Source of the DNA: a phage
Sequence record: OZ503098.1
Length of the DNA: 44,954 bases
Reading direction: 5' to 3' (one strand)
Positions 15,034-38,340 of this stretch are shown in pieces. The notes below the pieces were generated by a model. It was not told the origin of the DNA. It worked only from the letters and a program-made list of their open reading frames with translations, and made no database searches. Position numbers and translations under genes: made by a program. Positions within the stretch are counted from its first letter, which is position 1. Each line of letters opens with the position of its first letter.

Positions 15034-15363
15034 ATGAATGTAAACGACGCAATCGAAATGTTAACGAAGACTGTTAGCAGTGAAACAAGCCGGTCATGGG
15101 CGTATACCGATGCCGTGGGTGCGGTGCTATTTGAAATCGAACGTCTGCGACTTACCGAAAAAGAATTGCGCGCGAAGCTGGAATTACTCAACGGTACTGC
15201 AGCAAGCAAGCTGCAAAAGCACAATGAAGAAATGGAAGAATACAAAAAGCAGGTTATCCGTTTGCGCGCCGAGGGCAAATCCTGGGCGATGATTGCCGAG
15301 TTGACCGGAATTAATCAGAGCACTGTGCGCTCCTGGGTGCGCAATAATAAAACTTCCAAATAA
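15034..15363 (+). CDS. Helix-turn-helix DNA-binding regulator (sigma-70 region 4 / LuxR-type HTH at the C-terminus)
   Basis: C-terminal RAEGKSWAMIAELTGINQSTVRSWVRNN is a typical HTH (region-4-like); N-terminal coiled-coil-like segment; GAGGA RBS; first gene of the rightward block. Confidence 0.6.
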   Translation: MNVNDAIEMLTKTVSSETSRSWAYTDAVGAVLFEIERLRLTEKELRAKLELLNGTAASKLQKHNEEMEEYKKQVIRLRAEGKSWAMIAELTGINQSTVRSWVRNNKTSK

Positions 15364-15367
15364 GGCT

Positions 15368-17638
15368 ATGACCATGAGTTTAATTAAATTCGCAGTAACA
15401 AGACCCGCTAAAAAAGGCGAAAAAGCCAGGGCGGAAAACTTCCAGATGACCACCGATGAATTTTTCGAATTTATCAAAGATGCGAAAGAAATCTCCTCGG
15501 TGCATATCAATAAGACGGAAGATAAAGCCGAGTATGCGCGCCGCAAGCGTAAGGCCGATGGCATCGTGGCATATACCAGTGACGGCCTTCGCCGCAAGAC
15601 CAGTGCGGTGGACCGCTCGATCCTGTTCTTCGATATTGACCGTACCGACACCCGCACCCTACGCCGCTGCCGTAAGGCGTTCATTGACGCGGGTCTGGAA
15701 CACGTATTTCACACCACAACCGGCGACCGTCACCCACTGAAAGGAGGCACGCGTTGCGCCCGTTTCCTGGTGTTAACTGACAAGCCTGTACCGGCTGAAG
15801 ACCTGGGCCGCGTCCAGTATGCACTATTACACCAACTGGGTCTGTCAGATGTGGACTTCGACGATTGCACGAAAGACACAAACCGCCTGATGTACCTGCC
15901 TCACCAGCAGTCTGTTATTAAGTGCCACTACGGCAAGCGCGCCCGCGTCCGCCGTCTGCTCCGCCTGGCTGATAAGCTGGGAGTTGAGAAAGAGGAAGTA
16001 CGCCGCGAGCTTACCCAGGGCGACGACGCAGTGGCAGACGGCATTCTGGACTGGTGCTTCCAGGCAGGATTCGAGGAGTTATCTTCCGGGCGGGGCTTTG
16101 AAGTGCCGTGCCCGAACGAACATCTGCACAGCGGCGAAGGGTCGACGGCTATCATGGTCAAGGATGGCGAGATCCGTTTCAAGTGTATGCACACCGGCAA
16201 CGAGTGTTGCTCTGAACTGAATAGACACCAACACCTGGCGCTACGTCTTATCGGCATCCCGGACCACCTGAACGTCGAGCCACACAATATGTCCCGTAAG
16301 CAAATCGCCGCCATCCTTCCGGGGCTGGACGACGAGGAAGTCGAATCCTTATATGAACATATTGTTGATGCGGTTGGCGACGGCGAAGAATACGGCGTGT
16401 GCACCGATGCGGATCTGGATAACGAGCCGGTCGCGCTGTTCAGTAAGCACGACACGATTATCGAGGGGTTGATTAACTTTAAATCGACCTGGTACATGGC
16501 GGGTGAGTCGAATATCGGTAAGTCTTTCTATGTGCTGGGCCAAATGGGCGCGGTTGCCGCCGGTATTCCGTTTGGTGGTGCGAAGGTCGTCCAGTCTCAT
16601 TGCTTCTATTTCGACGCGGAAGGTGGCGAAGCCTCCAACCAGCGTAAAGAAGCATTGCAGATTAAATACGAGCACGACCTGGACAAGCTGCACATTATAG
16701 ACCTGCAGTCACGCGGCTGGGATATCACCAGCAAGTCCGGCTTGCGCGAAGTTATCAGTTTTATCAACCGCACCGCTAACGGCGAGCCGGTTGGCCTGGT
16801 GGCGTTCGACTCACTCAACCAGACTGTTGCGTTGCGGTCCGCCGAGGCTAAACCGTTCGACGAGAACAACGCCAGCGATATGGGCGAAGTGGTCAAAGCG
16901 CTGAAGGCCATCGCGGAAAACACAGGTGGCAGTGCGGGCGTCATTCACCACCCGGCGAAAGGTGCAAACGGCAGCAGAACCCCACGCGGGTCCGGCGCGC
17001 TGCATGGTGCTGTCGATTCCGCTTTCTTCCTGGAACAGCCGGACGACAACCAGCCCGGACAATTGAACCTGTATCACGAAAAGTCACGTAACGGCATCAA
17101 GCAAGCGCCGCGCGGCTTCGTCCTGCTCAAGTGCAAAGTTAAGGTGGATCTCCGCAAGTCAGAAGCGTTCGAGGCGCACCAGTCCACCAGCACCGGGCCA
17201 GACTTCGGGGATGTGGTTGCCGGTTGGGACGTCAAGCCGATCGCCTCCACGCCACGCGACGAGACTCTCTACCTCGTACCGGTTGCCCTGGCACCGTTCG
17301 CTATTGAACAGGCGAAGGCGGCAGGCAAGGCCGCGGTTAAGGAAGAGAACACCGCCGGACCGCGCAACGGAAAAGAGAAAGTGCTTTATGCTGCACTGGA
17401 AAAACTGATGGAAGATAACCCGGACCATACTGGATTCAGTAAATCGGCGATTGTCCGCCAGGCGGGACTCGCGAAAGGTGGCACGTCGACGAAGGCAATC
17501 GACGATATGGTGGAGCGCGGCGTGATAGGTTTTTACACCGATCCGCACACCGGGGCCATCTATGGGTCGTCTAATTTGGTCATCAAATCGGATATCCCAA
17601 TCACGCTTTCAGCGACCGATGAAGACTTAAAAGATTAA
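15368..17638 (+). CDS. Primase-helicase: archaeo-eukaryotic-type primase-like N-terminal domain fused to a RecA-like P-loop NTPase
   Basis: N-terminal LFFDIDRTD (acidic DxD-type motif), central Cys/His cluster (CPNEHLHSGEG...CMHTGNECC), C-terminal Walker A GESNIGKS and Walker B-like LVAFDSL. Confidence 0.7.
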   Translation: MTMSLIKFAVTRPAKKGEKARAENFQMTTDEFFEFIKDAKEISSVHINKTEDKAEYARRKRKADGIVAYTSDGLRRKTSAVDRSILFFDIDRTDTRTLRRCRKAFIDAGLEHVFHTTTGDRHPLKGGTRCARFLVLTDKPVPAEDLGRVQYALLHQLGLSDVDFDDCTKDTNRLMYLPHQQSVIKCHYGKRARVRRLLRLADKLGVEKEEVRRELTQGDDAVADGILDWCFQAGFEELSSGRGFEVPCPNEHLHSGEGSTAIMVKDGEIRFKCMHTGNECCSELNRHQHLALRLIGIPDHLNVEPHNMSRKQIAAILPGLDDEEVESLYEHIVDAVGDGEEYGVCTDADLDNEPVALFSKHDTIIEGLINFKSTWYMAGESNIGKSFYVLGQMGAVAAGIPFGGAKVVQSHCFYFDAEGGEASNQRKEALQIKYEHDLDKLHIIDLQSRGWDITSKSGLREVISFINRTANGEPVGLVAFDSLNQTVALRSAEAKPFDENNASDMGEVVKALKAIAENTGGSAGVIHHPAKGANGSRTPRGSGALHGAVDSAFFLEQPDDNQPGQLNLYHEKSRNGIKQAPRGFVLLKCKVKVDLRKSEAFEAHQSTSTGPDFGDVVAGWDVKPIASTPRDETLYLVPVALAPFAIEQAKAAGKAAVKEENTAGPRNGKEKVLYAALEKLMEDNPDHTGFSKSAIVRQAGLAKGGTSTKAIDDMVERGVIGFYTDPHTGAIYGSSNLVIKSDIPITLSATDEDLKD

Positions 17639-17905: not shown

Positions 17906-18061
17906 AAAATCCGGGATTGCATAATACACGGCAACATGATGCAAATTGCGGTCGTCGGTGAACTAGGCAACCAATGCGAGTTGCAGAATGGTGGGTGAAA
18001 AATGCAGTTTGCAGTCACAGCAGATAGCGATCGACTTTTTCATACGCGTGATTAATATTGG

Positions 18062-18090
18062 TTGCACCCGCCCTGGCACCCTGCTATATT
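18062..18090 (+). promoter_or_regulatory. Sigma70-like promoter TTGCAC-17-TATATT embedded in two ATTGGTTGCAC motif copies, upstream of gene 18119
   Basis: -35 TTGCAC 18062-18067, 17-bp spacer, -10 TATATT 18085-18090; motif copies at 18057-18067 and 18088-18098. Confidence 0.45.
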
Positions 18091-18118
18091 GGTTGCACAC
18101 CAACATGAGGACTGAACA

Positions 18119-22478: not shown

Positions 22479-22548
22479 CCCACTTAGATGGCAGGGCCGT
22501 CTCCTATGTTGCCGATGGCCGGCGCATATGAACAAAAGGGCTTATATC

Positions 22549-23100
22549 ATGGCAGAAATCAAAGTTAAGGGCCGACGCGCCAAACTGGACGGACGAGTAG
22601 CAGTAACCCCGCGCCGTAAACCAGGCGAGCAAACCGAGCATACCAATCTCGGACCTGAGATCGAGTACGGCAAGCGCCGTAAAGGCGGCAAATGTGGACG
22701 CCCTACTGACTACCGATCTGTTTACTGCGACCAGCTTCGTCGCTATTTTGCCGACGCCGACGCCTGGCAGGTCAATTACTCCGATAAAGGCGCTGCGCAG
22801 GTAATCCCTCGCAACAAAATGCCAACCTTCGGCAGATTTGCCGCGGAAATCGGTGTGGGCGTAGCTTGCCTGTATCGCTGGGCGCGCGCACATGAGGAGT
22901 TTGCCGAGGCGATGGCGGACGCAATGGAGTTGCAGAAAACTTTCCTGATGGAAGCTGGCGGCGTGACTATCGCGGCAGGCTTCGCGACCTTCCTGCTCAA
23001 AGCCAATCACGGCGTACGCGACGATATCCCACTGGATGACGACGAAGATGATAACGGCGACGTCGTTGTCGAACCTACCGGCAAAGGCCAGGGTGAGTAA
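22549..23100 (+). CDS. Terminase small subunit
   Basis: Immediately upstream of and overlapping the large terminase gene; HTH-like FGRFAAEIGVGVACLYRWARAHEEF; basic N-terminus, acidic C-terminus; start chosen at ATG 22549 (MAEIKVKG). Confidence 0.55.
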   Translation: MAEIKVKGRRAKLDGRVAVTPRRKPGEQTEHTNLGPEIEYGKRRKGGKCGRPTDYRSVYCDQLRRYFADADAWQVNYSDKGAAQVIPRNKMPTFGRFAAEIGVGVACLYRWARAHEEFAEAMADAMELQKTFLMEAGGVTIAAGFATFLLKANHGVRDDIPLDDDEDDNGDVVVEPTGKGQGE

Positions 23101-24485
23101 TGCGTAACTATGCGGCAGAACACCGCGCACTGGAACGCGCGATCGCGAAGCGCAACCGACCACCGCGCCCGACACGCGTTGCGCAGGCGGTGCGGCTTTA
23201 CCAGCCTGATTGCCTACCGCACCAGGTCGAACTACTGCGGGACACGAAGACTAAAATCCTCGGCCTGTGTTCCGGCTTCGGCGGCGGCAAGTCATGGGTC
23301 GCAGCCCGTAAGGTAATCCAGCTTTTAACCCTGAACCCGGGTCATGATGGCATCGTTACAGAACCGACTATTCCCCTCCTGGTTAAAATCATGTATCCAG
23401 AATTGGAGAAGGCTTTCGACGAGGCTGGCTTCCGGTGGAAGTTCAACAAGCAGGACAAGATCTATAGCGTTCTGGTGAAAGGCAAATGGACCCGCGTGAT
23501 CTGTGAATCAATGGAGAACTATACCCGTCTGATCGGGGTCAACGCCGCGTGGATTGTTGCCGACGAGTTCGATACCACGAAACAAGACGTCGCAATGGCG
23601 GCTTATCACAAATTGCTCGGTCGTCTGCGTGCGGGCGTGGTCCGTCAGTTTGTCATCGTATCCACGCCGGAAGGCTTCCGGGCAATGTATCAAATTTTCG
23701 AGGTGGAGAAGGATAGCCAGAAACGTTTGATCCGGGCGAAGACCACCGACAACCACCATTTACCGGCAGACTTTATCGACACGCTGCGCAGTCAGTACCC
23801 GGCGAACCTTATTGACGCGTACCTGAACGGCCTGTTTGTTAACCTTACGTCGGGCGCGGTGTACAAGATGTTCAACCGCGAGGAGAACGCCAGCACCGAA
23901 GAAGTGCAGCCGGACGACACGCTGATTATCGGCATGGACTTTAACGTCACGAAGATGGCGGCGGTTGTGTACGTCAGACGGCAGCGAATCACAGAGAACA
24001 AGGAGTTCCGCGACGAGATTCACGCGGTGGATGAATTTGTGGACCTGTTTGACACTCCGGCGATGATCGAGGCGATCGAGGAGCGCTACCCGGAACATTG
24101 CGCCGCCGGTAAAGTCGTAGTTTACCCGGATAGCAGTGGCAAGTCGCGTAAGACGGTCAACGCGTCGTCGTCCGATATCGCGCAACTGGAAGATGCGGGC
24201 TTCGAGGTGGAATATGACAGTGTTAACCCGCCTGTGAAAGACCGATTGATCGCGATGAATACGATGATGTGCAACTCGAAGGGTGTGCGCCAGTATTTTG
24301 TCAACCTGGATAAATGCCCTACACTAGCGAAATGTCTGGAACAGCAGGTGTACGACCTGAAGAAAGGCGAGCCGGATAAAACTGCCGGTGTGGACCACAT
24401 GAATGACGCAGCGGGCTACCCTATTGCGCACTTGTTCCCTGTGATTCGTCCGATCGCCGTTGTTCCTACCGTAGATTTCTACTAA
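23100..24485 (+). CDS. Terminase large subunit
   Basis: Walker A-like GFGGGKS, Walker B-like AAWIVADEFD, C-terminal nuclease-like region; 461 aa; TAATG overlap with the small subunit gene. Confidence 0.8.
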   Translation: MRNYAAEHRALERAIAKRNRPPRPTRVAQAVRLYQPDCLPHQVELLRDTKTKILGLCSGFGGGKSWVAARKVIQLLTLNPGHDGIVTEPTIPLLVKIMYPELEKAFDEAGFRWKFNKQDKIYSVLVKGKWTRVICESMENYTRLIGVNAAWIVADEFDTTKQDVAMAAYHKLLGRLRAGVVRQFVIVSTPEGFRAMYQIFEVEKDSQKRLIRAKTTDNHHLPADFIDTLRSQYPANLIDAYLNGLFVNLTSGAVYKMFNREENASTEEVQPDDTLIIGMDFNVTKMAAVVYVRRQRITENKEFRDEIHAVDEFVDLFDTPAMIEAIEERYPEHCAAGKVVVYPDSSGKSRKTVNASSSDIAQLEDAGFEVEYDSVNPPVKDRLIAMNTMMCNSKGVRQYFVNLDKCPTLAKCLEQQVYDLKKGEPDKTAGVDHMNDAAGYPIAHLFPVIRPIAVVPTVDFY

Positions 24486-24496
24486 GGAAACCGACC

Positions 24497-26017
24497 ATGA
24501 CCGTTAACGTTGACAACCAGCACCCGCTCTATGCGCGCATCGCGCCAGAGTGGAAAATGATCCGTGACTGCGTAGCGGGGGAGCGCGCCGTGAAGGCGTG
24601 CGGCCCCTTGTACCTGCCACACCCCGCAAGCGGCGACACCACCGACCCGAAATCACGGGCACGGTATAAGGCGTATAAGCAACGTGCTGTCTTCCTGAAC
24701 GCCACCGCCCGCACACTGAATGCGCTGTTAGGTGTCGCCTTCGCCAAACCGGTGAGTATGGACCTTTCCGGGGCAATGGCTGACCTGATTGATGACGTAG
24801 ACGGCAGCGGGATGCCGCTGGCGCAACTCCTGCGCGGCGCTATGTCGGAAGTGCTGCAATCGGGCCGCGCAGGCTTTATGGTGGACTACGACCGCCAGGC
24901 GCATTTTGACGAACTGGGTAACGTAGTGCCGCAGACAGCCGCGGAGATGGCGGCACACCGCCCGCTTATCCGCCTGTATACGGCTGAACAGATCATTAAC
25001 TGGCGGCAGACCCACGGGGTTGACACGCTAATCGTGCTGAAGGAAACGGACGAAATCAGCACCGAAGACCCGGACGACTTCGCAAACCACGAAGTAACGA
25101 TCTGGACCGAGCTTCGCATGATTGCAGGTAAGGCCCACGCCCGCCGCTGGTTTTACAACGCGGACACGTCCGAGGTGCAGATGGACTTGCCGCGAGGCTT
25201 CACCCGCACCGACCTTGTACCATTGGTGGATGCCTCCGGTAATGCGCTAACTCAACTGCCTTTTTGTTGGTGTGGTGCGGTTGATAACAATGCAACACCA
25301 GATGCCGCACCGCTGGCGGATATCGCGTCCATCAACATTAAGCACTACAACGCCGAAGCAGACGTCGCCGAGATTGCGCACATTGTGGGCCAACCTACAC
25401 TCATTGCGACCGGTCTGACCCAATCATGGGCCGATAAAAACCTGAAGGGCGGCATCGCACTAGGCGCGACTAAGGGTGTTATCCTGGGGCAGAATATGGA
25501 CGCTAAACTGCTTCAGGCTGAGGAGAGAAACCTGTCAGTTGCGCTGTGTGAGCGACGCGAATTGCAAATGGCTAAACTGGGCGCTGCCCTGGTTGAGAAG
25601 GGGACCGCACCTAAGACGGCAACGGAGGCGGCTTATGATGCGCAGACTGATAACAGTATCTTGTCGCTGATTGCCGGTAATGTTGAGAAGGCTTTCAACC
25701 GTGCGCTGCAAATCGTCCAGCTTTTCACGGGGGACGCCGCAACCCAGCAAGTCACGTTGAATAAGTTTTACACCGAGATCACGGTGGACGCACAGCTTAT
25801 GACCGCGATGATGGCAGGTGTGCAGACTGGTACTGTCCGTCTGGCGGACTTTATCAAGTGGATGATGGCCCAGGGCGTTATCGATGACTCGCAAACCGTT
25901 GAGCAGGTGGAAGACGAATTGCGAAATCAGAATCCATTGCCTCAAATGTCCCCGGATGCGGTAGAATCTACCGAAGAAGACCCGGACAAGGTATCGGACA
26001 ATGGCGAAGACAATTAA
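24497..26017 (+). CDS. Portal protein
   Basis: 506-aa ORF immediately after the large terminase with an acidic C-terminal tail; assignment by position and size. Confidence 0.65.
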   Translation: MTVNVDNQHPLYARIAPEWKMIRDCVAGERAVKACGPLYLPHPASGDTTDPKSRARYKAYKQRAVFLNATARTLNALLGVAFAKPVSMDLSGAMADLIDDVDGSGMPLAQLLRGAMSEVLQSGRAGFMVDYDRQAHFDELGNVVPQTAAEMAAHRPLIRLYTAEQIINWRQTHGVDTLIVLKETDEISTEDPDDFANHEVTIWTELRMIAGKAHARRWFYNADTSEVQMDLPRGFTRTDLVPLVDASGNALTQLPFCWCGAVDNNATPDAAPLADIASINIKHYNAEADVAEIAHIVGQPTLIATGLTQSWADKNLKGGIALGATKGVILGQNMDAKLLQAEERNLSVALCERRELQMAKLGAALVEKGTAPKTATEAAYDAQTDNSILSLIAGNVEKAFNRALQIVQLFTGDAATQQVTLNKFYTEITVDAQLMTAMMAGVQTGTVRLADFIKWMMAQGVIDDSQTVEQVEDELRNQNPLPQMSPDAVESTEEDPDKVSDNGEDN

Positions 26018-27104
26018 TCAATATATGGCGGATCGAATGATTCGCCGACACATCTTCACCCAGCGCCTGAGTAATGACCAGGCGCGGAGGGTGCTGGCTA
26101 TGTGGGAGAAGTTCCGGCCTACATTACTAGGAAAGCTGACTGAGTTACTTGATGGCAAATCGTCAATGCATAACAAGGCACTTTCCACTCTGTTAACGCA
26201 ACTCGACAAGACCGTCAAAACGGAACTGCGCACCGAGTTTAAGGCGCTGGCTGAAAGCCTTCAGGAGTTCGCCGACACCGAGGCTGATTATCTCGCCGAC
26301 ACATTAACGGCAGCGATCCAGCCCGCGGTCGCCGTACCGGCTGTTGAGGTGGTGGGTGTTGTGACCGGCGCGCAGATCGCGGCGACTGCAATGAAAAACC
26401 CGTTCCAGGGTAACACCATGATGCAGTGGCCCGATTCACTTTCCGAGTGGACCAGGACGCAGATCGGCAATCAGGTGCGCGCCGGATTCATCCAGGGCAA
26501 GCCGACGATGGAAATTATCGCGGATGTGAGGCGCGCGCTAGGCGGTCGAAGTGCGCAAGCAATCTCAAGCGTTGTTAAGTCCGCAGTCAACCACTATGCG
26601 GCGACCGCCCGCGAATTAATGGTGAAAGCTAATGACGATATTCTCGAAGGTCGCCAATGGTTATCTACATTGGACACGCATACTTCTCCCATGTGCCAGC
26701 TACGCGATCGCCTGTTTTATCCGGTTGATGTTACTCCCGATACGAAAGGGAAGCGAGGCGGAAAAGTGGTGGCGGGATCACAATATGGCGCCGGTCCGGG
26801 CAAGCTACATTATTGCTGCCGCTCGACGGAGACGTGGAAAGTCAAAGGTATGGAAGATTGGCCCAGTGGTAAGCGTCCGGCACTGAAGGCCGACGCAGGC
26901 AGATTGCTGAGTGAGCATGTCGACGCGCAGACTGATTTCTTCTCATGGGTGCAGCGCCAGCCGCGCCATATCCTGGAGGAATTATATGGAGTGCAACGCG
27001 CCGACCAGATTATGCGCGGCGTGAAAGTGCCGAAGATGTTCACCGATTCTGGCGAACTGATGTCTATTGCACAGCTTAAAAACCGGGGGTTATGGCGTGA
27101 TTAA
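26001..27104 (+). CDS. Head morphogenesis protein (Mu F-like / SPP1 gp7-like minor head protein)
   Basis: Follows the portal gene; LSTLDTHTSPMCQLRDRLFY matches the conserved D-x-R-T...C core of this family. Confidence 0.6.
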   Translation: MAKTINQYMADRMIRRHIFTQRLSNDQARRVLAMWEKFRPTLLGKLTELLDGKSSMHNKALSTLLTQLDKTVKTELRTEFKALAESLQEFADTEADYLADTLTAAIQPAVAVPAVEVVGVVTGAQIAATAMKNPFQGNTMMQWPDSLSEWTRTQIGNQVRAGFIQGKPTMEIIADVRRALGGRSAQAISSVVKSAVNHYAATARELMVKANDDILEGRQWLSTLDTHTSPMCQLRDRLFYPVDVTPDTKGKRGGKVVAGSQYGAGPGKLHYCCRSTETWKVKGMEDWPSGKRPALKADAGRLLSEHVDAQTDFFSWVQRQPRHILEELYGVQRADQIMRGVKVPKMFTDSGELMSIAQLKNRGLWRD

Positions 27105-27426
27105 ATACGCAGCGATTGGGCTGGTTATCGGTCTGGCGGTAGGATTCTGGCTAGGTGACTCCTATCGCGCTGGCGTAGTGGCGGAGGCGGCGCAAGAAGC
27201 CCAAGCCCAAGCCCAACGGCAGCAAACTAAAGTTGTTGAGCGCTCCGTGCAGGCCGAACAAGCCCGCGACGTAGAATACCGGACTATCACGAAAGAGGTT
27301 GTTAAATATGTTACGCGCCCTAACCGCCCTGATTGTAGTTTTGATGCTGAGCGCGTGCGGATCAAGCAACGTGCCGTTGATGCCGCTAACGGAGTCGGCA
27401 CTGCGACCGCCGTGCAAGTTCGATAG
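27097..27426 (+). CDS. Putative i-spanin (Rz-like): N-terminal TM segment plus Gln/Ala-rich coiled coil
   Basis: GTG start at 27097 with GGGGG RBS (the track's TTG start at 27067 is also possible); AAIGLVIGLAVGFWLG TM segment followed by AQEAQAQAQRQQTKVVERSVQAEQ; overlaps an embedded lipoprotein ORF. Confidence 0.45.
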   Translation: MIKYAAIGLVIGLAVGFWLGDSYRAGVVAEAAQEAQAQAQRQQTKVVERSVQAEQARDVEYRTITKEVVKYVTRPNRPDCSFDAERVRIKQRAVDAANGVGTATAVQVR

Positions 27427-27580
27427 CCCGTCCGCAGACCCCGACGAGGATTTGATGATTGACGTGAAAAATATGGAATGCGGGGCGAAGCTAAGGGCGC
27501 AGGTGCTGGAGTTGCAGCAAATAATTAAGGGCCGTAATGGCCCCCTTTTCGTTAGCGCGGAATACCGCAAATCTCGTTGA
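27308..27580 (+). CDS. Putative o-spanin (Rz1-like outer-membrane lipoprotein), overlapping the i-spanin gene in the +1 frame
   Basis: ATG 27308 with AAAGAGG RBS; signal peptide with lipobox MLRALTALIVVLMLSACGSS; Pro-rich mature part; 90 aa. Confidence 0.5.
   Translation: MLRALTALIVVLMLSACGSSNVPLMPLTESALRPPCKFDSPSADPDEDLMIDVKNMECGAKLRAQVLELQQIIKGRNGPLFVSAEYRKSR
27529..27551. terminator. Bidirectional hairpin at the convergence of the o-spanin gene and the minus-strand moron
   Basis: GGGCC-gtaat-GGCCC followed by CCTTTTCGTT on plus and by UUAAUUAUUU on minus. Confidence 0.4.
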
Positions 27581-28316
27581 GAGTTTTCACATCCAGCGCC
27601 ACCGCCGTGGATTTTGGCTTGTCCGGGTAAGGGATGAATTGCTCAACTTCAGGCCATGCCTTAATCAGCTTCTTGTCAGTATTGTGCAGGTCCAGCACAC
27701 CGGTAACGGTCAACTTGAACGCGTCATACTTAGCCCGCAACTCACGGCGGGCCTTGTCGTTACGGTCCAGGCGCTTACAGAAATCATGATCCGCCGGGAA
27801 ATCCGCACGGCAGTGTGGCTTATAGATCGGCAGCGCTTTCCCGTCCTCGTCCACTTCGCACACTGACGCGAGCATAACTTCTTCAAACCCCGGTACGATA
27901 TCGCCTAAATCGGGGGATAGCTTATTCATGTATTTATATTCCCAGCATCCGCGATGTACGCGGTATTGGCGACCGTCACCGCTCAAGGATAAGGTGCGAA
28001 CATTTCCGCCTGCGTTGATTTCGAAAGTGGCGTCGTAAACGCTGCCGATACCTTTCGGGCGGTCGGCGTTATAACGATATGTCGCCTTGTTGGTGTATAC
28101 ACAGACGCCGTACATCTGCGACGGGTCATCGCCGATTGCTTCAATGTGCGCGAGTAGCTCGGCGAACGTGCGAATGCCTTCCGGCATACAGTCCAGCGTA
28201 ATGGCATAAGCCAGGTCGCGCGAGTCCATCATGATTTGTTTGGCTTCGGTTGCGATTTCGTGGTCGCGCAGGATGTTAGCCAGAATCTGATTTTTAATGT
28301 CTTTAGTAAGTCTCAT
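27552..28316 (-). CDS. Opposite-strand moron: hypothetical protein (254 aa) of unknown function
   Basis: Only minus-strand gene inside the 15-43 kb plus-strand block; ATG 28316 with GAGGA RBS; own promoter-like element upstream and hairpin downstream; Cys/His-containing (HRGCWEYKY, KPHCRADFPADHDFCKR) but no motif I can name. Confidence 0.55.
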   Translation of the reverse strand: MRLTKDIKNQILANILRDHEIATEAKQIMMDSRDLAYAITLDCMPEGIRTFAELLAHIEAIGDDPSQMYGVCVYTNKATYRYNADRPKGIGSVYDATFEINAGGNVRTLSLSGDGRQYRVHRGCWEYKYMNKLSPDLGDIVPGFEEVMLASVCEVDEDGKALPIYKPHCRADFPADHDFCKRLDRNDKARRELRAKYDAFKLTVTGVLDLHNTDKKLIKAWPEVEQFIPYPDKPKSTAVALDVKTLNEICGIPR

Positions 28317-28345
28317 TTTTGTGTCCTCGTTGTTGGTGTGCAACC

Positions 28346-28375
28346 AATATATTGCAACCAATACCCGGATTGCAA
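28346..28375 (-). promoter_or_regulatory. Promoter for the moron: TTGCAA-18-TATATT on the minus strand, overlapping two ATTGGTTGCA copies
   Basis: Minus-strand reading: TTGCAAtccgggtATTGGTTGCAaTATATTGGTTGCAC; same architecture as the 18062-18090 promoter. Confidence 0.4.
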
Positions 28376-28382
28376 GCGAATT

Positions 28383-28410
28383 TTGCGATTATTTTTATCA
28401 CTGATAATAT
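28383..28410 (+). promoter_or_regulatory. Promoter-like element TTGCGA-16-TGaTAATAT upstream of the scaffold gene
   Basis: Extended -10-like TGATAATAT at 28402-28410; divergent from the moron promoter. Confidence 0.3.
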
Positions 28411-28464
28411 TAAGGCGTGAAGTCGAGCGGGTGGCCTGCTCTGCCACAATCCCAGGGGGATAGC

Positions 28465-29166
28465 ATGAAACTTACTAAAGCAGAATATGACGCGTTGCCG
28501 GAAGGTATGAAGGCGCTTTTTGTTGCCGATGGTGACGGGTATAAATCAACGTTCATGACCGCCGAAGAAGTACAGGCGGAGATTAAGGGTCTGAAAGACA
28601 ATAACGCGAAGCTGGTTAGCGAGAAGAAAGCAGAAGCCGAACGTCGCGCCGAAGCCGAGCGCCTTGCGAAAGAGAAAGAGGAAGCCGCCGCGCGCAAAAA
28701 TGGCGACCTCGAAGCGATCGACAAGTCCTGGAAAGATAAGTTTGCGAAACACGAAGCAGACACATCGGGAAAAATCGAAGCCTACCGCAAGCAGATCCAC
28801 GACCTAACCATCGGCAGCGCTGCCAAAGATTTGGCCTCGAAGCTGTTCGGTAAGAATGCGGGCATCATGCAACGCCACGTTATGGACCGCCTGACGCTGG
28901 AAGACGGCGAAGACGGCAGCTTGAAGGTGCGTGTCTTGCAGGATGGCAAACCATCCGCGCTGACTATGGAAGAGCTTGAAAAAGAGTTCCGTAATAACGC
29001 CGATTTTGCATCCGTCCTGGCAGGCACGCCAGCCGGTGGTGCGCCGAGCAAACCGACGCAGGTCGTCGAAGATGTGAAGTCTAAAATCACTATGGGCCAC
29101 AGCTTTGGCATCACCGACCTGACGAAACAGGCGGGTGAAATCATCGCTAAAATGGGCGACGAGTAA
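28465..29166 (+). CDS. Putative scaffolding protein
   Basis: ATG 28465 with AGGGGGA RBS; Lys/Glu/Ala-rich predicted coiled coil (AEAERRAEAERLAKEKEEAAARK); immediately upstream of the major capsid gene. Confidence 0.5.
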   Translation: MKLTKAEYDALPEGMKALFVADGDGYKSTFMTAEEVQAEIKGLKDNNAKLVSEKKAEAERRAEAERLAKEKEEAAARKNGDLEAIDKSWKDKFAKHEADTSGKIEAYRKQIHDLTIGSAAKDLASKLFGKNAGIMQRHVMDRLTLEDGEDGSLKVRVLQDGKPSALTMEELEKEFRNNADFASVLAGTPAGGAPSKPTQVVEDVKSKITMGHSFGITDLTKQAGEIIAKMGDE

Positions 29167-29171
29167 GCAAA

Positions 29172-29196
29172 TTGCCCGCGAAAGCGGGCAATTTTG
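29172..29196 (+). terminator. Hairpin plus T-run after the scaffold gene
   Basis: TTGCCCGC-gaaa-GCGGGCAA followed by TTTT. Confidence 0.5.
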
Positions 29197-29263
29197 CGAG
29201 CGCGTAAATCTAAGGTAACATTAACGGTACTGGGCGAATGCTCACAACTCAAAGGATTCCGAT

Positions 29264-30364
29264 ATGTCTTTAACAGTGTTCCAGCGTAAACTCGTCACCG
29301 CGGTTACGCAAATGATCCCCGATAACCTGAACGTGTTCAACGCTGCCGCTAACGGTGCTGTTGTTCTCGGCACGGGTGAAGTGCTGAAGGATGTTGTAGA
29401 AAAAATGTCCGTAGGCTTGATCGCCAACCTCGTTACCGACCGTAACGCCTATGCCCCTGTCGGTACTCCGGCGACCGCAAAAGTGCTGGCGCGTATGCTG
29501 ACCAACTCCGTCAACCTGTCCGCGAAAGTGGGTCCGGTAGCAATCACTAAGGCTATGATGGCTAAAATCGAAACCAACGTTAACAGCGTTGCGGCTGAGA
29601 TTGCGGCACAGGCTACTCAAGCGATTATGCTGCATTACCTGAAGGCTGGCATCGGCGCAAGTAAAGCGGCGATCGAGAGCAACGCAGCGGCAAAATACAC
29701 CCAACCGGCGCGCGTTGACGGCGTTGGCGGTCGTACCTTCCCGACCCTGGCAGACTTCCCGCTGGCGGCTTCTAAGTTCGGCGATCAGGCGTCTTTGATT
29801 AAGTCCTGGTTTATGGACGGCGTCACCTGGGCAAACTTCATTGCGTACCAGGCACTCCCTTCCGCTGAACAGGTATTCGCAATTGGCGATCTCCAGGTAA
29901 TGGGTGATGGCCTGGGCCGTCGCTTCATTATCTCCGATGCCGCTGCCGATGCTATGGGCACGGGTAACATGCTGGGTCTGGTCCCTGGCGCGGTTGCAGT
30001 TACCACCAACGGTCTTGATATGCTGGCGCAGGAGAAAGGCGGTAACGAGAACATCGAACGTTGGTGGCAGGGCGAGTTCGACTTCAACGTGGCGGTTAAA
30101 GGCTATCGTCTGAAGGCGTCCGCACGTACTACGGTCGAAGGTGTTCGCTCGTTCAAACTGTCCGACATCACCACTTCCGCTAACTGGGAACTGGATCAGG
30201 GCCAGGTAGACAACGCACCGGCAACCGTTCAGGATGTTGGCGCTGTTGGTGACGGCGATACTAAAGGCCGTCGTAAGACCCCGGCCGCACAGGAAGTGCC
30301 GACCCGTCACATCAAGGAAACGGCAGGCGTACTGGTTACGCTTACCCCGACCAAAGCGTCCTGA
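29264..30364 (+). CDS. Major capsid protein
   Basis: 366-aa ORF after the scaffold gene, AAAGGA RBS, followed by a strong terminator; assignment by position, size and composition. Confidence 0.6.
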   Translation: MSLTVFQRKLVTAVTQMIPDNLNVFNAAANGAVVLGTGEVLKDVVEKMSVGLIANLVTDRNAYAPVGTPATAKVLARMLTNSVNLSAKVGPVAITKAMMAKIETNVNSVAAEIAAQATQAIMLHYLKAGIGASKAAIESNAAAKYTQPARVDGVGGRTFPTLADFPLAASKFGDQASLIKSWFMDGVTWANFIAYQALPSAEQVFAIGDLQVMGDGLGRRFIISDAAADAMGTGNMLGLVPGAVAVTTNGLDMLAQEKGGNENIERWWQGEFDFNVAVKGYRLKASARTTVEGVRSFKLSDITTSANWELDQGQVDNAPATVQDVGAVGDGDTKGRRKTPAAQEVPTRHIKETAGVLVTLTPTKAS

Positions 30365-30382
30365 TCTACGCACATCCCAAAT

Positions 30383-30408
30383 GGGCGGGCATAAGCCCGC
30401 CTTTTTTA
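30383..30408 (+). terminator. Rho-independent terminator after the major capsid gene
   Basis: GGGCGGGC-ataa-GCCCGCC followed by TTTTTT. Confidence 0.6.
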
Positions 30409-30422
30409 TAGGAGTGAATCTA

Positions 30423-30923
30423 ATGTATGGCGACCCGCAAACCTTTGTTGTTTATGCCGCGGCGCGAGGCGTTGAAATTACGCAGAGCGACGCAACTCGA
30501 CACCTTACCATTGTTAATGACTTCCTTAACGGCATCGACTGGATCGGCGAACAAGCGGACCCGACCGGAATTGACGCATGGCCCCGCGTCAACTACCCGT
30601 CAGACGGTAAGCCGGTGCAAAACACGCTTACTGAAGATTTGACAGTAGTTCCTGCGGGGCAGATTGTAGACTTCGCATCAATCCCTGTTGCCGTTGAGCA
30701 AGCAGTTTACCGGCTGGCAATGTTGGTGGCGGACGATGTTGATATTTCTCCGGTCAGCGATGGAAAGGAGACTATCCGTGAAACGGTAGGCCCGATCACG
30801 ATGGAGTATGACGCCGCGACGATTGGTAGCGGTGTGTCTTTCCCGTGGTGGGATGGCTTGCTGGGCTATTGGGTGGATGTAGACGGCAACGCAGCGGGTA
30901 ATTTTGACGTATTCAGGGGGTAA
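30423..30923 (+). CDS. Putative head-tail connector / head completion protein (166 aa)
   Basis: Internal ATG 30423 with AGGAG RBS (the long ORF start at 30234 would overlap the capsid gene); first gene after the capsid terminator. Confidence 0.45.
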   Translation: MYGDPQTFVVYAAARGVEITQSDATRHLTIVNDFLNGIDWIGEQADPTGIDAWPRVNYPSDGKPVQNTLTEDLTVVPAGQIVDFASIPVAVEQAVYRLAMLVADDVDISPVSDGKETIRETVGPITMEYDAATIGSGVSFPWWDGLLGYWVDVDGNAAGNFDVFRG

Positions 30924-30924
30924 T

Positions 30925-31023
30925 ATGAATCCAGCATTACTGGCGGCTATTATCGCCGCAAATACTAAACGCCAACCAGAACCGGAATCACCGGTACAGG
31001 AGGATGAAAATGGCGGGCTTTAA
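30925..31023 (+). CDS. Possible 32-aa micro-ORF
   Basis: TAATATG coupling to the upstream stop; MNPALLAAIIAANTKRQPEPESPVQEDENGGL; overlaps the next start; weak support. Confidence 0.25.
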   Translation: MNPALLAAIIAANTKRQPEPESPVQEDENGGL

Positions 31024-31363
31024 TTACACGGGATTAAAGCGGAAAGTCAATCCGCTGATTAAAAAGTTCGGCATGACCGTTACGGTTACGCGTCCTGGGT
31101 CGGTTGACCGCGTAGACGGCGACGAAGTGGTAATCCCGCCAACGTCGTTTGACGTCATCGGTCTTCGCGAGGAGTACGAGCCTAGCGAGATCGACGGTAC
31201 GCGTATCGTTGCCGGTGATGTGAAGTTTTTGTGCCAGGCCGTCAAGCCGGTGAAGGTAGGGGATTTGGTTAGCCTGAACAATACAGACTACCGGGTTATC
31301 AATCCCAACCCCCTGCAACCGGCGGGCGCAACCATGCTGTTTCAATTACAGCTAAGGGGCTGA
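31010..31363 (+). CDS. Putative head-tail joining protein (117 aa)
   Basis: AGGAGG RBS 6 nt upstream of ATG 31010 (the track's ATG at 31004 abuts the RBS); position in the neck module. Confidence 0.45.
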   Translation: MAGFNYTGLKRKVNPLIKKFGMTVTVTRPGSVDRVDGDEVVIPPTSFDVIGLREEYEPSEIDGTRIVAGDVKFLCQAVKPVKVGDLVSLNNTDYRVINPNPLQPAGATMLFQLQLRG

Positions 31364-31364
31364 C

Positions 31365-31958
31365 GTGGCTGAGGTCTACTCATTCGCCGCCACTATTGCT
31401 ACGTGGGTGGATAAGACGAAGGAGAACAACGATAAGGCGGTGCAGGCGTATGGGATGCAAATACTCGGACGCCTTATTGAGATCTCCCCAGTGGGCGACC
31501 CTCGCCGGTGGAAAATTAACAGGGCTTACGCGCTGGCCCGCCAGCACGCGAACAAGGTGAACGCCGCACAGCGCCGCAAGAATGGCGGCAAACTGAAGCG
31601 CGGGCAGAAGAAGCACGCCAGTGTGCTCGTTTCATTCAAGACTAAAAACGGCAACGTCACGTTCCGCCAGCGTGGCTGGGCCGCGAAGAATTACACCGGC
31701 GGGCGCTTCCGTGGTAACTGGCAGGTGACGTTCGACCGCCCGGCTGTTGGCGCTATTGACCGCGTGGATAAGGCAGGAACGGCAACATTAGCCGCGGGGC
31801 GTGAAGTGCTGGCGCACTACGATTCGAGTGAATACGGGTCAATCTGGTTTACTAACAACGTGCCATACGCGCAGCGACTTGAGTATGGCTGGAGTAAACA
31901 AGCGCCAGCGGGGATTGTTCGCGTCGTAGCGGCAGAAATTAATTCGAAGGTGAAATAA
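31365..31958 (+). CDS. Putative neck/tail-completion protein (197 aa), GTG start
   Basis: GTG 31365 with AAGGGG RBS, directly after the upstream stop; basic region RRKNGGKLKRGQKKHASV. Confidence 0.45.
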   Translation: MAEVYSFAATIATWVDKTKENNDKAVQAYGMQILGRLIEISPVGDPRRWKINRAYALARQHANKVNAAQRRKNGGKLKRGQKKHASVLVSFKTKNGNVTFRQRGWAAKNYTGGRFRGNWQVTFDRPAVGAIDRVDKAGTATLAAGREVLAHYDSSEYGSIWFTNNVPYAQRLEYGWSKQAPAGIVRVVAAEINSKVK

Positions 31959-32380
31959 TGAGCAATACCGCAATCCGCAAAGCGCTTAACAGCGTGGTAG
32001 AAGAGTTATCGTCGAGCCTGAGCACAAGCCCGCGTCCGATCCAGGTTAACTGGGAGAACGTGCAAGGGGACCACGCAAACGGTAGTGGTGTCTACCTGGA
32101 GCCGTACCTGCTACCGGCCCCGACTCAGTTTGCGGGCTTACAGCAGAAGGGCCGGATCTATGCTGGCGTATATCAAGTTGCCGTGGTGTTCCCGGCTGGC
32201 ACTGGCACACAGTACGCGAGCGAACTGGCGGACGCCATCGCTACGTCGGATAAGTGGCTGGCGGTAAAGATTTCCGGCGCTGCATTCCAGCTTCAGGACG
32301 CGCCATACACCAGTTCAGTGGTTGAGGACGTTGATCGCGCCCGCATTGTGGTTACAGTCCCCTACACCTGTTGCGCCTGA
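31958..32380 (+). CDS. Putative tail terminator/completion protein (140 aa)
   Basis: TAATG coupling to the upstream gene; position immediately before the major tail protein. Confidence 0.45.
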   Translation: MSNTAIRKALNSVVEELSSSLSTSPRPIQVNWENVQGDHANGSGVYLEPYLLPAPTQFAGLQQKGRIYAGVYQVAVVFPAGTGTQYASELADAIATSDKWLAVKISGAAFQLQDAPYTSSVVEDVDRARIVVTVPYTCCA

Positions 32381-32441
32381 TTTGGCGCAATTCTGCGCGT
32401 GCTGTATCATTAAACCGTATATCTAAACAGGAGCGTTCATT

Positions 32442-33158: not shown

Positions 33159-33175
33159 ATAGCAGGTGATAATAT

Positions 33176-33198
33176 GGGGCCAGACGGCCCCTTTTTTA
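33176..33198 (+). terminator. Rho-independent terminator after the major tail protein gene
   Basis: GGGGCC-agac-GGCCCC followed by TTTTTT. Confidence 0.6.
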
Positions 33199-33213
33199 TT
33201 GGAGAATACCACA

Positions 33214-33576
33214 ATGGCTAAAGCACCACTCTTTACACTTGACCCTAAGCCTACCTTTAAGCTGCCGATTGAGATCCCGCGCCCTGGTGAGAACGAACCG
33301 GGCAAAATGACGTTTACCGTACGCCACCGCCCGATCGACGAATTTTCGCAGACCATGCAGGATACTGAGCGCAAGTTGTCGGAGTATGACGACAATGACC
33401 CTGACGGCTTTAACGTTATGGTCGAGGCCATAATGCACGTCGCTGAAGGCTGGAATCTGCCGGACGAATTTAACGCGGAGAACGTCCGCCGCCTGGTGGT
33501 CAACTACCCGCGCGCGTTCGGCGTGTTCCACACGTCGTACTATCTCGAACTGATGGGGCTGCGTGAAAAAAACTAA
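33214..33576 (+). CDS. Tail assembly chaperone (lambda gpG-like), zero-frame product
   Basis: ATG 33214 with GGAGAA RBS; 120 aa acidic protein between the major tail and tape measure genes; ends at a slippery heptamer. Confidence 0.6.
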   Translation: MAKAPLFTLDPKPTFKLPIEIPRPGENEPGKMTFTVRHRPIDEFSQTMQDTERKLSEYDDNDPDGFNVMVEAIMHVAEGWNLPDEFNAENVRRLVVNYPRAFGVFHTSYYLELMGLREKN

Positions 33577-34215: not shown

Positions 34216-34274
34216 TGTTTTAAATTCGCTGATACAATGACCGACGGCAACTGCATAAAAAGGGGGACTGCATA

Positions 34275-36917: not shown

Positions 36918-36924
36918 TAAAATG

Positions 36925-38338: not shown

Positions 38339-38340
38339 TC

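Follow-up and report, generated by a model that had tools for sequence, protein, structure and literature searches.

The repeated word and its predicted promoters

The window (the whole stretch analysed here, OZ503098.1, 44,954 nucleotides) is a complete, circularly permuted genome of an E. coli phage, a Dhillonvirus of the HK578/SSL-2009a-like type. It carries a repeated word of 9-10 bases, (A)TTGGTTGC(A), in which TTGGTTGC is the core 8-mer. The initial annotation had proposed that this word marks phage promoters and that an HTH protein resembling sigma region 4 may read it. The copies, the dyads, the HTH gene and the motif-free promoters are as follows, all promoters being predicted:

2996 to 3017: inverted pair TGCAACCAAC-ct-ATTGGTTGCA; the reversed copy gives a minus-strand -35 TTGCAA (3013-3018), and on that strand the forward copy lies at -23 to -14, before TATCTT (2989-2994), a -10 not conserved in relatives
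4656 to 4682, minus strand: two direct copies 17 bp apart; 4673-4682 gives the -35 TTGCAT (4672-4677), and 4656-4665 lies within the spacer (-23 to -14), before the -10 TATATT (4649-4654) and a terminator-like hairpin directly after it
7602 to 7623, minus strand: direct copies 12 bp apart, ATTGGTTGCT at -40 to -31 and ATTGGTCGCA at -28 to -19 (-35 TTGCTG, 7613-7618; -10 TATAGT, 7590-7595), in the final codons of the VRR-NUC gene, ahead of the Lar-like one
11905 to 11930, plus strand: copies CTTGGTTGCT and CTTGGTTGCG, reversed relative to a leftward promoter (TTGACC, 11938-11943; 17 nt; TAGATT, 11915-11920), at -22 to -13 and -6 to +4
14782 to 14791, plus strand: degenerate copy ATTGGTTAAG in the 5' UTR of the first leftward gene, kept in 8 of 8 genomes
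14836 to 14845, plus strand: reversed copy in the spacer (-23 to -14) of the leftward early promoter (TTGACT, 14852-14857; 17 nt; TAATAT, 14829-14834)
14932 to 14960, minus strand: early promoter without the word (TTGAAA, 17 nt, AATAAT; a TG precedes the -10)
15005 to 15019, plus strand: dyad TTGGTCATTAACCAA, 2 nt past the -10 (TAGTTT, 14997-15002) of the HTH gene's own promoter (-35 TTGACA, 14974-14979)
15034 to 15363, plus strand: gene of the HTH protein (109 aa; long helix at residues 21-79, C-terminal HTH at 84-107), the first of the rightward early operon
17650 to 17694, plus strand: two ATTGGTTGCC copies 35 bp apart, directly after the helicase-primase stop codon, at the start of an origin-like repeat region; a promoter was looked for here and no convincing one was found
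17966 to 17975, minus strand: single ATTGGTTGCC copy in reverse orientation inside the origin-like region
18057 to 18066, plus strand: exact ATTGGTTGCA copy at -40 to -31 of a rightward promoter, whose -35 TTGCAC (18062-18067) is the TTGCA of this copy plus the following C
18088 to 18097, plus strand: exact copy over the start site and the -10 (TATATT, 18085-18090, a 17-nt spacer after that -35) of the same promoter, and the left half of dyad TTGGTTGCACACCAA (18089-18103)
18609 to 18618, minus strand: copy within the gp56-like gene, antisense
21081 to 21113, minus strand: two copies reversed relative to a rightward promoter (TTGACT, 21075-21080; 18 nt; CATACT, 21099-21104), at -30 to -21 and -7 to +3, downstream of the terminator 21045-21066
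22470 to 22478, plus strand: extended -10 promoter without the word (TGtTATAAT), upstream of the terminase and late operon
28339 to 28362, minus strand: two direct copies 14 bp apart, at -23 to -14 and -9 to +1 of a leftward promoter (TTGCAA, 28370-28375; 18 nt; TATATT, 28346-28351) for the Nmad5-domain gene; the region contains the dyad 28333-28347
44381 to 44390, minus strand: copy at -40 to -31, giving the -35 TTGCAT (44380-44385), with a weak -10 AATACT (44357-44362), upstream of the leftward lipoprotein (Cor-like) gene

The word is clearly over-represented against shuffled controls: ATTGGTTGCA occurs exactly 11 times on both strands of the window, with 0.12 expected, and none of 100 shuffles reaches 11. 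With at most one mismatch there are 17 copies (3.3 expected), and the core TTGGTTGC is found 22 times (about 2.3 expected). An unbiased 10-mer enrichment of the window places the word among the two most over-represented, the other being AGCGGGACAG. The location at non-coding junctions is likewise confirmed: non-coding DNA, 7% of the genome, contains 16 of the 20 strong copies; three further strong copies occupy the last codons of a gene directly upstream of the next one. The first base is G at 2996 and 21081, and the last base is C at 17650, 17685 and 17966. Counted from the site list and the gene map, about 12 copies are co-oriented with transcription and about 8 are opposed. The sites listed initially, including the pair at 18057 and 18088, are real, with several coordinates off by 1-4 nt: 14832-14842 becomes 14836-14845, 17968-17976 becomes 17966-17975, 21082-21090 and 21106-21115 become 21081-21090 and 21104-21113, and 28342-28350 and 28354-28363 become 28339-28348 and 28353-28362. 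The pairs 7602/7614 and 11905/11921 and the in-gene copy 18609 had been omitted.

At the nine motif-bearing predicted promoters, all copies lie between -40 and +4. Their slots are the forward position -40 to -31, in which the word gives a TTGCAn -35, the spacer abutting the -10, and the stretch over the -10 and start site; either orientation occurs in the latter two, and predicted promoters with a TTGACy -35 contain reversed copies in the spacer or at +1. The slots are 14-17 bp apart, a poor fit to a simple same-face dimer. Phasing relative to -10-like hexamers was measured on 70 copies from five non-redundant genomes. Forward copies at -39 to -32 (the d = 27 peak) account for 11 of the 70 (P = 8e-10), a register that recurs in L008, L010 and VLCpiS11a; 14 are forward copies overlapping the -10 (the d = -4 peak, P = 1e-13), and 11 are reversed copies directly after the -10 (P = 8e-10). 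An independent promoter scan gave five matches in non-coding DNA facing a downstream gene, four of which have the word in the spacer or start site. Where the word itself supplies the -35, promoter prediction is partly circular.

The motif-bearing units are early/middle and accessory transcription units. The word is absent from the predicted promoter of the late operon and from two predicted early promoters, and thus marks one promoter class. Four copies (17650, 17685, 17966 and 18609) have no convincing promoter. The proposal that the word marks phage promoters is therefore supported in silico by location, by the -40 to +4 position, by -10 phasing and by purifying selection; it holds for the early/middle and accessory units and not for the late operon.

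The word had also been read as an extended -35-like element, one copy supplying the -35 with TATATT 17-18 bp downstream. A TTG hexamer 16-18 bp upstream of TAnnnT, facing a gene, is indeed present at 18057, 4673 and 7614 and weakly at 44381; the -35 TTGCAA at 28375, however, is supplied by no motif copy. No single position and orientation holds for all copies. Only about 4 of the 20 act as a -35, and the other 16 or so are in reverse orientation, in a spacer, across the -10/+1 or at no promoter at all, so this reading fails for most of them. The accompanying suggestion, that some copies overlap the spacer and start site like operators, is borne out.

Conservation within and between genera

Across eight genomes, 11% of motif columns are variable versus 38% of the flanking non-coding columns (Fisher p = 1.7e-14). 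Judged from these columns, the motif copies are under purifying selection. The copies at 18057 and 18088 are invariant in all eight, with an intervening spacer full of changes, and the copy at 18609 is invariant despite variable neighbouring wobble positions. Within the word, TTGG is conserved as strongly as TTGCA, and the positions after GCA carry almost no information.

The word extends well beyond these genomes. In contigs of about 71% nucleotide identity it is the top enriched k-mer, in comparable places and in the same register, and divergent relatives have two tandem reversed copies in the spacer corresponding to 14836-14845. Over-representation of TTGGTTGC is also seen in Klebsiella phage VLCpiS11a, with 13 copies, and in two Serratia phages, Otaku and Tsm2, with 12 copies each. 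Both promoter architectures are retained in VLCpiS11a and Otaku. In VLCpiS11a the promoter orthologous to 7602-7623 retains the word, a reversed copy again precedes the SSB gene, as at 11905-11930, and a full reversed copy stands at the place comparable to the degenerate one at 14782-14791. Between Otaku and Tsm2, 11 of 11 alignable copies are intact and the flanks have changed; most Otaku copies are intragenic, and a synonymous-codon shuffle accounts for about half. The 8-mer is unchanged between lineages that have different early regulators and only 45-70% protein identity. The leader ACCAACnnGAGGA is likewise common to genera, with gene insertions directly after the promoter-leader cassette, and cross-genus conservation could partly reflect horizontal spread of such cassettes. 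A scan of viral contigs for paired copies mainly picked up unrelated tandem repeats and pairs arising by chance.

One possibility is a promoter element only, with no separate factor: host sigma-70 polymerase would read the word, and the remaining copies would be remnants or duplicates of a mobile promoter-leader cassette. The word contains a -35-like TTGCA, and its usual 5' flank TAnA followed by TT makes a -10-like TAnATT, the arrangement behind the d = -4 peak; thus, a pair of copies 31 bp apart, such as 18057/18088, amounts to a complete promoter. An invariant word across lineages would fit an invariant host reader, and the shared leaders and the insertions after the cassette fit as well. 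However, promoters equipped with a TTGACy -35 of their own have reversed copies in fixed positions, in the spacer or at +1, and these are kept across genera. Conservation of TTGG, which precedes the -35, equals that of TTGCA, and TTGCAn matches the consensus TTGACA at only 3-4 of six positions. Moreover, we know of no case in which polymerase reads promoter spacer sequence in such a manner. On balance, we regard this explanation as unlikely.

Candidate readers of the word

The product of 15034-15363 is a real coiled-coil plus HTH protein, and the sigma-region-4-like HTH ascribed to it is confirmed: HTH_23 scores 30.7 bits (Pfam cut-off 24.6) and Sigma70_r4_2 27.9 (cut-off 25.7), and the GerE profile falls below its cut-off. 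Sigma region 2 and other sigma regions were not detected; only HTH-type families match, all within residues 39-107. Local Foldseek matches of about 1 A over 34 residues lead to the HTH domains of RhlR, SdiA, GerE, NarL, resolvase and IstA, and the whole-chain search gave no significant match, only generic HTH matches of about 35 residues. The C-terminal 60 residues are nearly invariant in 24 of 24 clusters, and the N-terminus is mosaic.

According to the proposal made at first, the word is an extended -35-like element and this protein activates or represses all motif promoters. Several points speak for it. Among the scanned window proteins, Pfam and PHROGs recognise no HTH regulator other than this protein, and its gene opens the rightward early operon. 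The modelled long helix plus HTH suggests a dimer, and most sites are paired. The word is unchanged across all HTH classes, as is nearly the whole C-terminal segment. Nevertheless, VLCpiS11a, Otaku and Tsm2, equally rich in TTGGTTGC and with the same slots, lack a homologue (by tblastn, a best E of 0.5 in Otaku and no match at E <= 0.01 in VLCpiS11a). In the syntenic slot they have unrelated, mutually divergent XRE-type proteins, which are only 44% identical between VLCpiS11a and Otaku. Since these sister lineages use the same word and architectures without the HTH protein, it is hardly the general reader of the core, and the claim is unsupported to that extent. The few window copies at -35, the missing sigma regions and the lack of a significant fold match also count against it, so we hold this general role to be quite unlikely. 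Within the genus, a comparison of HTH class with the word was uninformative, since the HTH segment stays invariant even where the N-terminus differs, and a locus search with the protein alignment returned close relatives only.

A narrower role may suit the HTH protein better. The dyad TTGGT-N5-ACCAA occurs three times in the window (0.03 expected) and only in genomes that encode the protein, and the HTH gene's own promoter has one at +1; in HK578, however, that promoter lacks it. The HTH protein may read only this dyad variant. None of the candidate readers co-varies with the core word; presence of the HTH protein is matched by the N5 dyad alone.

The cluster beside the helicase-primase gene points to another possibility, namely that helicase-primase or another replication protein binds the word, that the origin-like region is ancestral, and that promoter copies couple replication to transcription. 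As for iterons, five copies are clustered by a potential initiator gene, in 17650-18097 downstream of the helicase-primase gene, and copies flank or lie within the 3' end of this gene in every lineage examined: 17650/17685 in the window, three copies in L008 and L012, and four inside the gene in Otaku and Tsm2. They flank the stop codon in L008, L012 and Otaku; in SenTO17 and SP-031 they do so as three copies of the variant TTGGCTGC, found nowhere else in those genomes. In addition, the C-terminal region of helicase-primase comprises about 215 residues without a domain assignment, and its only moderately confident sub-domain in the model gives exclusively winged-helix-type fold matches. Yet the model of this region is poor (pLDDT 42) and no fold match is significant. 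The segment is only 27-35% identical among TTGGTTGC genomes and no closer there than to TTGGCTGC genomes, and thus shows no clear covariation with the word; the domain was set aside as a reader on these grounds. In the window, most copies belong to promoters a long way from the origin-like region, and the GCGGGACA repeats are better iteron candidates. We therefore consider an initiator role very unlikely.

Could a known host regulator be involved? A GntR-family repressor (PdhR, LldR) or CytR might read the ATTGGT half-site, which would couple transcription of the phage to the metabolism of its host. For CytR, the half-site GTTGCATT is similar to the 3' half in some of the copies. The PdhR box AATTGGTnnnACCAATT also has an ATTGGT half-site, and the PdhR operator is the palindrome (A)ATTGGTnnnACCAAT(T), in which a GGTnnnACC core is required (PMC7660256). 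In the window, however, TTGGT-N3-ACCAA with at most one mismatch occurs 0 times (1.0 expected), the dyads present having N5, and TTGGTNNNACCAA with at most one mismatch has no match; this spacing rules out a PdhR/GntR operator. CytR is ruled out because the positions after GCA are nearly uninformative, and so its octamer is not conserved. Altogether, a regulator of this kind is exceedingly improbable.

Other candidates were set aside as well. By inspection, a sigma-54 site (TGGCAC-N5-TTGCA) is unfit in its GG/GC spacing, and the downstream element 18073-18090 is TATAT; IHF and DnaA boxes gave no match by inspection. The outgroup XRE proteins have recognition helices that differ between two TTGGTTGC-rich genomes. 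The conserved early proteins gp50 and gp51 have no family annotation and no PDB relative. A phyletic-pattern search for a protein restricted to TTGGTTGC-rich genomes returned only the PF05869 Dam-type methyltransferase and the capsid type, a pattern that probably reflects relatedness.

From over-representation, location, phasing, selection and cross-genus conservation, we infer promoter activity, protein binding, a sign of regulation and the kind of reader, as follows. We propose, with somewhat better than even confidence, that (A/G)TTGGTTGC(A) is a cis-regulatory word in the core of sigma-70-type promoters and that a factor binding its copies modulates initiation. The word would lie within the core of host-RNA-polymerase promoters serving early/middle replication genes, a small-gene cluster and accessory genes on the opposite strand, and it would be used in two ways. 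First, the 8-mer in forward orientation at -39 to -32 would provide the -35 hexamer through its 3' half, TTGCAn. Second, copies in either orientation would occupy operator-like slots, in the spacer abutting the -10, over the -10 and start, or within the first ~15 transcribed bases, often in promoters that already have a consensus-like TTGACy -35. A sequence-specific DNA-binding factor would occupy the copies, usually two per promoter, and modulate initiation by the host polymerase, most plausibly through repression or timing; the same factor would also bind the cluster in the origin-like region beside the helicase-primase gene. Because the 8-mer is unchanged across lineages with diverged proteins and differing early regulators, we favour, as reader of the core, either a host component or a conserved phage protein not yet recognised as such, ahead of the Dhillonvirus-specific HTH protein.

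A broader version of this proposal, which we offer tentatively and consider rather doubtful, is a cross-genus promoter grammar. In it, a highly conserved host component would recognise an 8-9-bp element with three fixed slots in host-type promoters (-39 to -32, abutting the -10, and over the start), timing early/middle transcription and linking it to the origin region in Dhillonviruses and some Guernseyvirinae, with the coiled-coil HTH dimer layered on top via TTGGT-N5-ACCAA. This component might be the polymerase holoenzyme acting non-canonically, or a DNA-binding protein of enterobacteria that has so far gone unrecognised.

Significance and comparison with known systems

Dhillonviruses are common E. 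coli phages, are included in the BASEL collection, and are widely used in work on anti-phage defence and phage therapy. We found nothing published on their transcription control; a literature search on the word, on Dhillonvirus promoters, transcriptomes and start sites, and under older phage names returned nothing relevant, and neither start-site nor binding data for these phages. The present analysis provides a map of about ten predicted promoters and a 9-bp word with defined, mutable slots, together with the negative result that the obvious HTH candidate is unsupported as a general reader. It turns a vague conserved repeat into a testable question, namely which conserved factor binds TTGGTTGC. 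For phage engineering, it offers a list of insulated promoter-leader cassettes with natural adjoining gene insertions.

Four known systems resemble the one described here in part. The MotA box of T4, used with sigma appropriation at middle promoters, is likewise a phage-specific word that stands in for a poor -35, with a good sigma-70 -10 downstream; however, it is centred at -30 in one orientation and one slot, whereas the present word is also found in spacers and at +1. Pfam scans of 22 window proteins detected no MotA or AsiA family. The early turn-down by lambda Cro also relies on a small HTH protein from the first rightward gene, the position of 15034-15363, and Cro acts as a dimer on operators overlapping early promoters; outgroups have XRE/Cro-like proteins in this slot, and the gene's own promoter carries a dyad at +1. 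Cro operators, however, are 17-bp palindromes in one control region, whereas here mostly single asymmetric copies are spread over about ten promoters, and the fold of the HTH protein is not Cro-like.

A third system is formed by the operators and stoperators of the mycobacteriophage L5 repressor gp71 (see also PMC9283540). As here, a short asymmetric word has many genome copies, mostly in short intergenic regions, and contains a -35-like hexamer, and one L5 copy overlaps the early promoter. L5 stoperators all point the same way relative to transcription, and their effect is on elongation in the lysogen; the copies here take both orientations, so that a single stoperator-like orientation does not hold, and they occupy fixed promoter slots. 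Unlike L5, this phage has no recognisable lysogeny genes, and its word outlives replacement of the early regulator.

Finally, the 21-22-nt repeats of T1-like phages (aaATAGCACnnnTTGnTAAAA in TLS; also in T1 and Stevie) provide a comparable unexplained case, and their function is explicitly listed as an open question (PMC11447400, PMC4319613). Their sequence is unrelated, and the word here is shorter, present in both orientations and phased with the -10 and -35. Nevertheless, the T1-like repeats are also asymmetric and mostly intergenic, with about 16-21 copies, and belong, as here, to virulent enterobacterial siphophages relying on the host polymerase.

The recurrent word and its genome

The window is a complete, circularly permuted Dhillonvirus genome of 44,954 bp, similar to the E. 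coli siphophages HK578, SSL-2009a and SO-1. An 8-kb segment of it matched 163 phage records at 80-95% identity, 125 of which cover at least 80% of the segment length. The SSL-2009a annotation was transferred onto the window and gives the following gene map.

14769 down to 1774, - strand: leftward replication operon
15034..15363, + strand: HTH protein (109 aa), first gene of the rightward operon
15368..17638, + strand: helicase-primase, rightward operon, after the HTH gene
After the helicase-primase: non-coding repeat region of 480 bp
Then: small genes, lysis genes and the late structural operon (22528..43138)
27555..28316 and 43161..44330, opposite strand: a few accessory genes

The initial annotation had pointed out a recurrent word, here taken as the 10-mer ATTGGTTGCA with the core 8-mer TTGGTTGC, and this is confirmed: ATTGGTTGCA occurs 11 times in the window versus 0.12 expected (17 versus 3.3 with one mismatch), and an unbiased k-mer enrichment places it among the top two 10-mers. 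Its information, about 16-17 bits, is concentrated in the core (A)TTGGTTGC(A). Non-coding DNA, which makes up 7% of the genome, holds 16 of the 20 strong copies; three others lie within the final codons of a gene, directly 5' of the next gene, and one lies within a gene. The recurring copies listed earlier stand, but several coordinates were wrong by 1-4 nt, and the pairs 7602/7614 and 11905/11921 and the in-gene copy at 18609 had been omitted.

Exact copies number 9-14 per genome in eight Dhillonviruses. In aligned orthologous non-coding regions, 11% of motif columns are variable versus 38% of flanking columns (Fisher p = 1.7e-14); at the focal site (18057 and 18088) neither copy varies, whereas the 17-bp spacer separating them carries changes at many positions. 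In metagenomic relatives with about 71% nucleotide identity, the word is still the top enriched k-mer, in comparable places.

Predicted promoter anatomy

A generic promoter scan with inspection predicted nine motif-bearing promoters, and the class 2 members were recovered independently by the scan. Every copy at these promoters lies within -40 to +4.

Predicted promoters in the window
4673, 7614, 18057, 44381: class 1; forward copy at -40..-31 forms the -35 TTGCAn
3018 and 28375, both - strand: related promoters; TTGCAA, 18 nt, -10; forward copy at -23..-14
11943 (-), 14857 (-), 21075 (+): class 2; consensus-like TTGACy -35, copies in reverse orientation within the spacer and across the start site
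14932-14960, - strand: motif-free early promoter
14974-15002, + strand: motif-free early promoter
22470-22478, 5' of the terminase gene: motif-free extended -10 promoter, TGtTATAAT

Class 1 promoters have TATATT, TATAGT or AATACT 17 nt beyond the -35, and a second copy is usually present in the spacer or over the -10/+1 region. Motif-free promoters also exist; therefore, the word marks early/middle and accessory units, not all promoters.

Offsets of -10-like hexamers were measured from 70 copies in five non-redundant genomes, and the hexamers fall at discrete offsets in both orientations. The forward word occupies -39..-32 in 11 copies (P = 8e-10) and overlaps the -10 in 14 (P = 1e-13), the reversed word directly follows the -10 in 11 (P = 8e-10), and copies abutting the -10 in the spacer are found in either orientation. 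Only a minority of copies can serve as a -35; the remaining copies sit at operator positions. The proposal that the word marks promoters is supported by the predictions and refined to one temporal class of promoters, with copies in three slots and either orientation.

Several promoters have features of their own. The perfect TGtTATAAT at 22470-22478 lacks a -35, lies between a terminator (22439-22459) and the small terminase gene, and is the sole obvious promoter for the late operon. The predicted - strand promoters at 4649-4677 and 2989-3018 have a GC-rich hairpin within a few bases downstream (regions 4620-4655 and 2950-2990), the one at 4625-4648 being followed by a T-run; upstream transcripts would hit the terminator, and those initiated at the promoter would start within the hairpin and so avoid termination. 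The related genome L008 shares this layout. The opposite-strand gene in the structural module, 27555-28316 (-), encodes a nucleotide modification associated domain 5 (Nmad5) protein (E = 1e-58) and has one motif promoter as its predicted driver; its neighbours differ among relatives, and SO-1, WF5505 and CHD5UKE2 annotate a DNA polymerase III beta-like moron there.

Candidate readers of the word and the dyad

The product of 15034..15363 had been proposed as the reader of the word. It scores above the curated cut-offs for HTH_23, HTH_28 and Sigma70_r4_2, and no other HTH regulator could be recognised in the scanned non-structural proteins. Its confident model (pLDDT 87) has a long helix at residues 21-79 followed by the HTH; locally the fold resembles HTH domains of LuxR/GerE, resolvase and IS21 transposase, with no match significant over the whole chain. 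The protein is not a sigma factor. The C-terminal 60 residues are nearly invariant in 24/24 database clusters; the N-terminal ~45 residues (15034-15170) are hypervariable and mosaic, with at least five unrelated versions across relatives. Such a pattern suggests that a fixed DNA-binding module is joined to an exchangeable one for partner binding or sensing.

Outgroups of the same genome layout were reached with the helicase-primase as probe. All those examined have an XRE/Cro-like protein in the slot 5' of the helicase-primase, and a homologue of the Dhillonvirus HTH protein is absent from every one. In Klebsiella phage VLCpiS11a, TTGGTTGC occurs 13 times, largely between genes; three of these copies make class 1 promoters in identical register, and others lie in a spacer, within the 5' UTR of the first replication gene, or in reverse orientation 5' of the SSB gene. 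Each of the Serratia phages Otaku and Tsm2 contains 12 copies versus about 1.5 expected, of which coding alone could account for about half in Otaku. Between these two phages 11/11 alignable copies are intact with altered flanks, and a TTGACA-17-TATAGT promoter has one reversed copy at -3..+4. VLCpiS11a and Otaku XRE proteins share only 44% identity, and their recognition helices differ. Salmonella phages SenTO17 and FSL SP-031 show no TTGGTTGC excess; their three copies of TTGGCTGC, a variant that differs by one base, are all found near the helicase-primase stop codon; Kagunavirus K1ind2, with an E. coli host, shows no excess either. Outgroups rich in TTGGTTGC lack the HTH homologue; therefore, the core word is independent of the HTH protein, and across these genomes it tracks none of the slot regulators.

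The HTH protein survives as a putative reader solely for a second layer, the dyad TTGGT-N5-ACCAA, which occurs three times in the window versus 0.03 expected.

15005-15019: dyad just 3' of the -10 of the HTH gene's own promoter
18089-18103: dyad just 3' of the -10
28333-28347: dyad just 3' of the -10

The exact dyad is found only in HTH-bearing genomes (2-4 per Dhillonvirus genome, 0 in five outgroups). Divergent contigs have one-mismatch versions at the HTH promoter, and the HTH promoter of HK578 has no dyad.

A rival target for the HTH protein is a second over-represented word, GCGGGACA, with 20 copies in the window: seven after the helicase-primase gene, nine in the gap 5' of the tape-measure gene and only four elsewhere. 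Both clusters (17745-17846 and 33895-34152) belong to a duplicated segment of ~200 bp, which also has TGCATAA words and a common hairpin, and the SO-1 GenBank record annotates them as repeat regions A and B. The clusters are likely protein-binding arrays, of an origin or of another kind.

As for the core word, the 8-mer stays constant while phage proteins diverge to 45-70% identity, from which we infer a very conserved reader; possible candidates are a host component and a conserved phage protein that has escaped recognition. Host PdhR-type operators were ruled out by spacing. The C-terminal ~215 residues of the helicase-primase have no family assignment; their model is poor, with one moderately confident sub-domain that gave only winged-helix-type matches, none significant. 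The segment does not covary with the word and is an unlikely reader. The conserved early proteins gp50 and gp51 gave no informative matches. In the phyletic pattern, only two features coincide with TTGGTTGC-rich genomes, the PF05869 Dam-type methyltransferase and the capsid type; relatedness is the probable cause. The PF05869 N6-adenine methyltransferase (3674-4156, -) is the sole non-structural protein shared by every TTGGTTGC-rich lineage (Dhillonvirus, VLCpiS11a, Otaku, Tsm2) and is present in 0/3 lineages without excess; the word contains no GATC.

Neighbouring repeats and known systems

An GAATAGTTATGCA element stands beside a TTGG(T/C)TGC copy 3' of the helicase-primase in the window (17707-17720) and in the Salmonella phages SenTO17 and FSL SP-031 (~12900-12930 in L148 and ~13790-13830 in L152). 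This suggests a conserved non-coding module of ancient descent, which may belong to an origin. The promoter-leader cassette TATATTGGTTGCACACCAACAnnGAGGA (18098-18118 and 28317-28338) is shared by different Dhillonviruses. Directly 3' of it whole genes are inserted or missing (related genomes L001, L002, L003, L005, L006, L007), and therefore the cassette acts as a border in mosaic gene exchange. VLCpiS11a has the leader ACCAACnnGAGGA too. G[TC]TGCCGT is strongly over-represented across the window (29 copies per variant versus 2-3 expected; e.g. 22418-43181); of the 55 copies within genes, 38 are antisense, the frames are mixed, and there is a strong skew in the late operon. GTTGCCGT or closely related ...TGCCG... 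words are enriched too in K1ind2, SenTO17, Otaku and VLCpiS11a. The signal may be polar, Chi-like or codon-driven.

No description of the promoter-associated word turned up in searches of the literature or among the complete feature lists of ten Dhillonvirus and Guernseyvirinae records; the HK578 record annotates only generic sigma-70 promoters, and that of SO-1 two repeat regions. The closest known systems are the operator/stoperator network of L5 gp71 and the unexplained intergenic repeats of T1-like phages. The Dhillonvirus word differs from both in its sequence, its orientation rules and its phasing with the -10 and -35.
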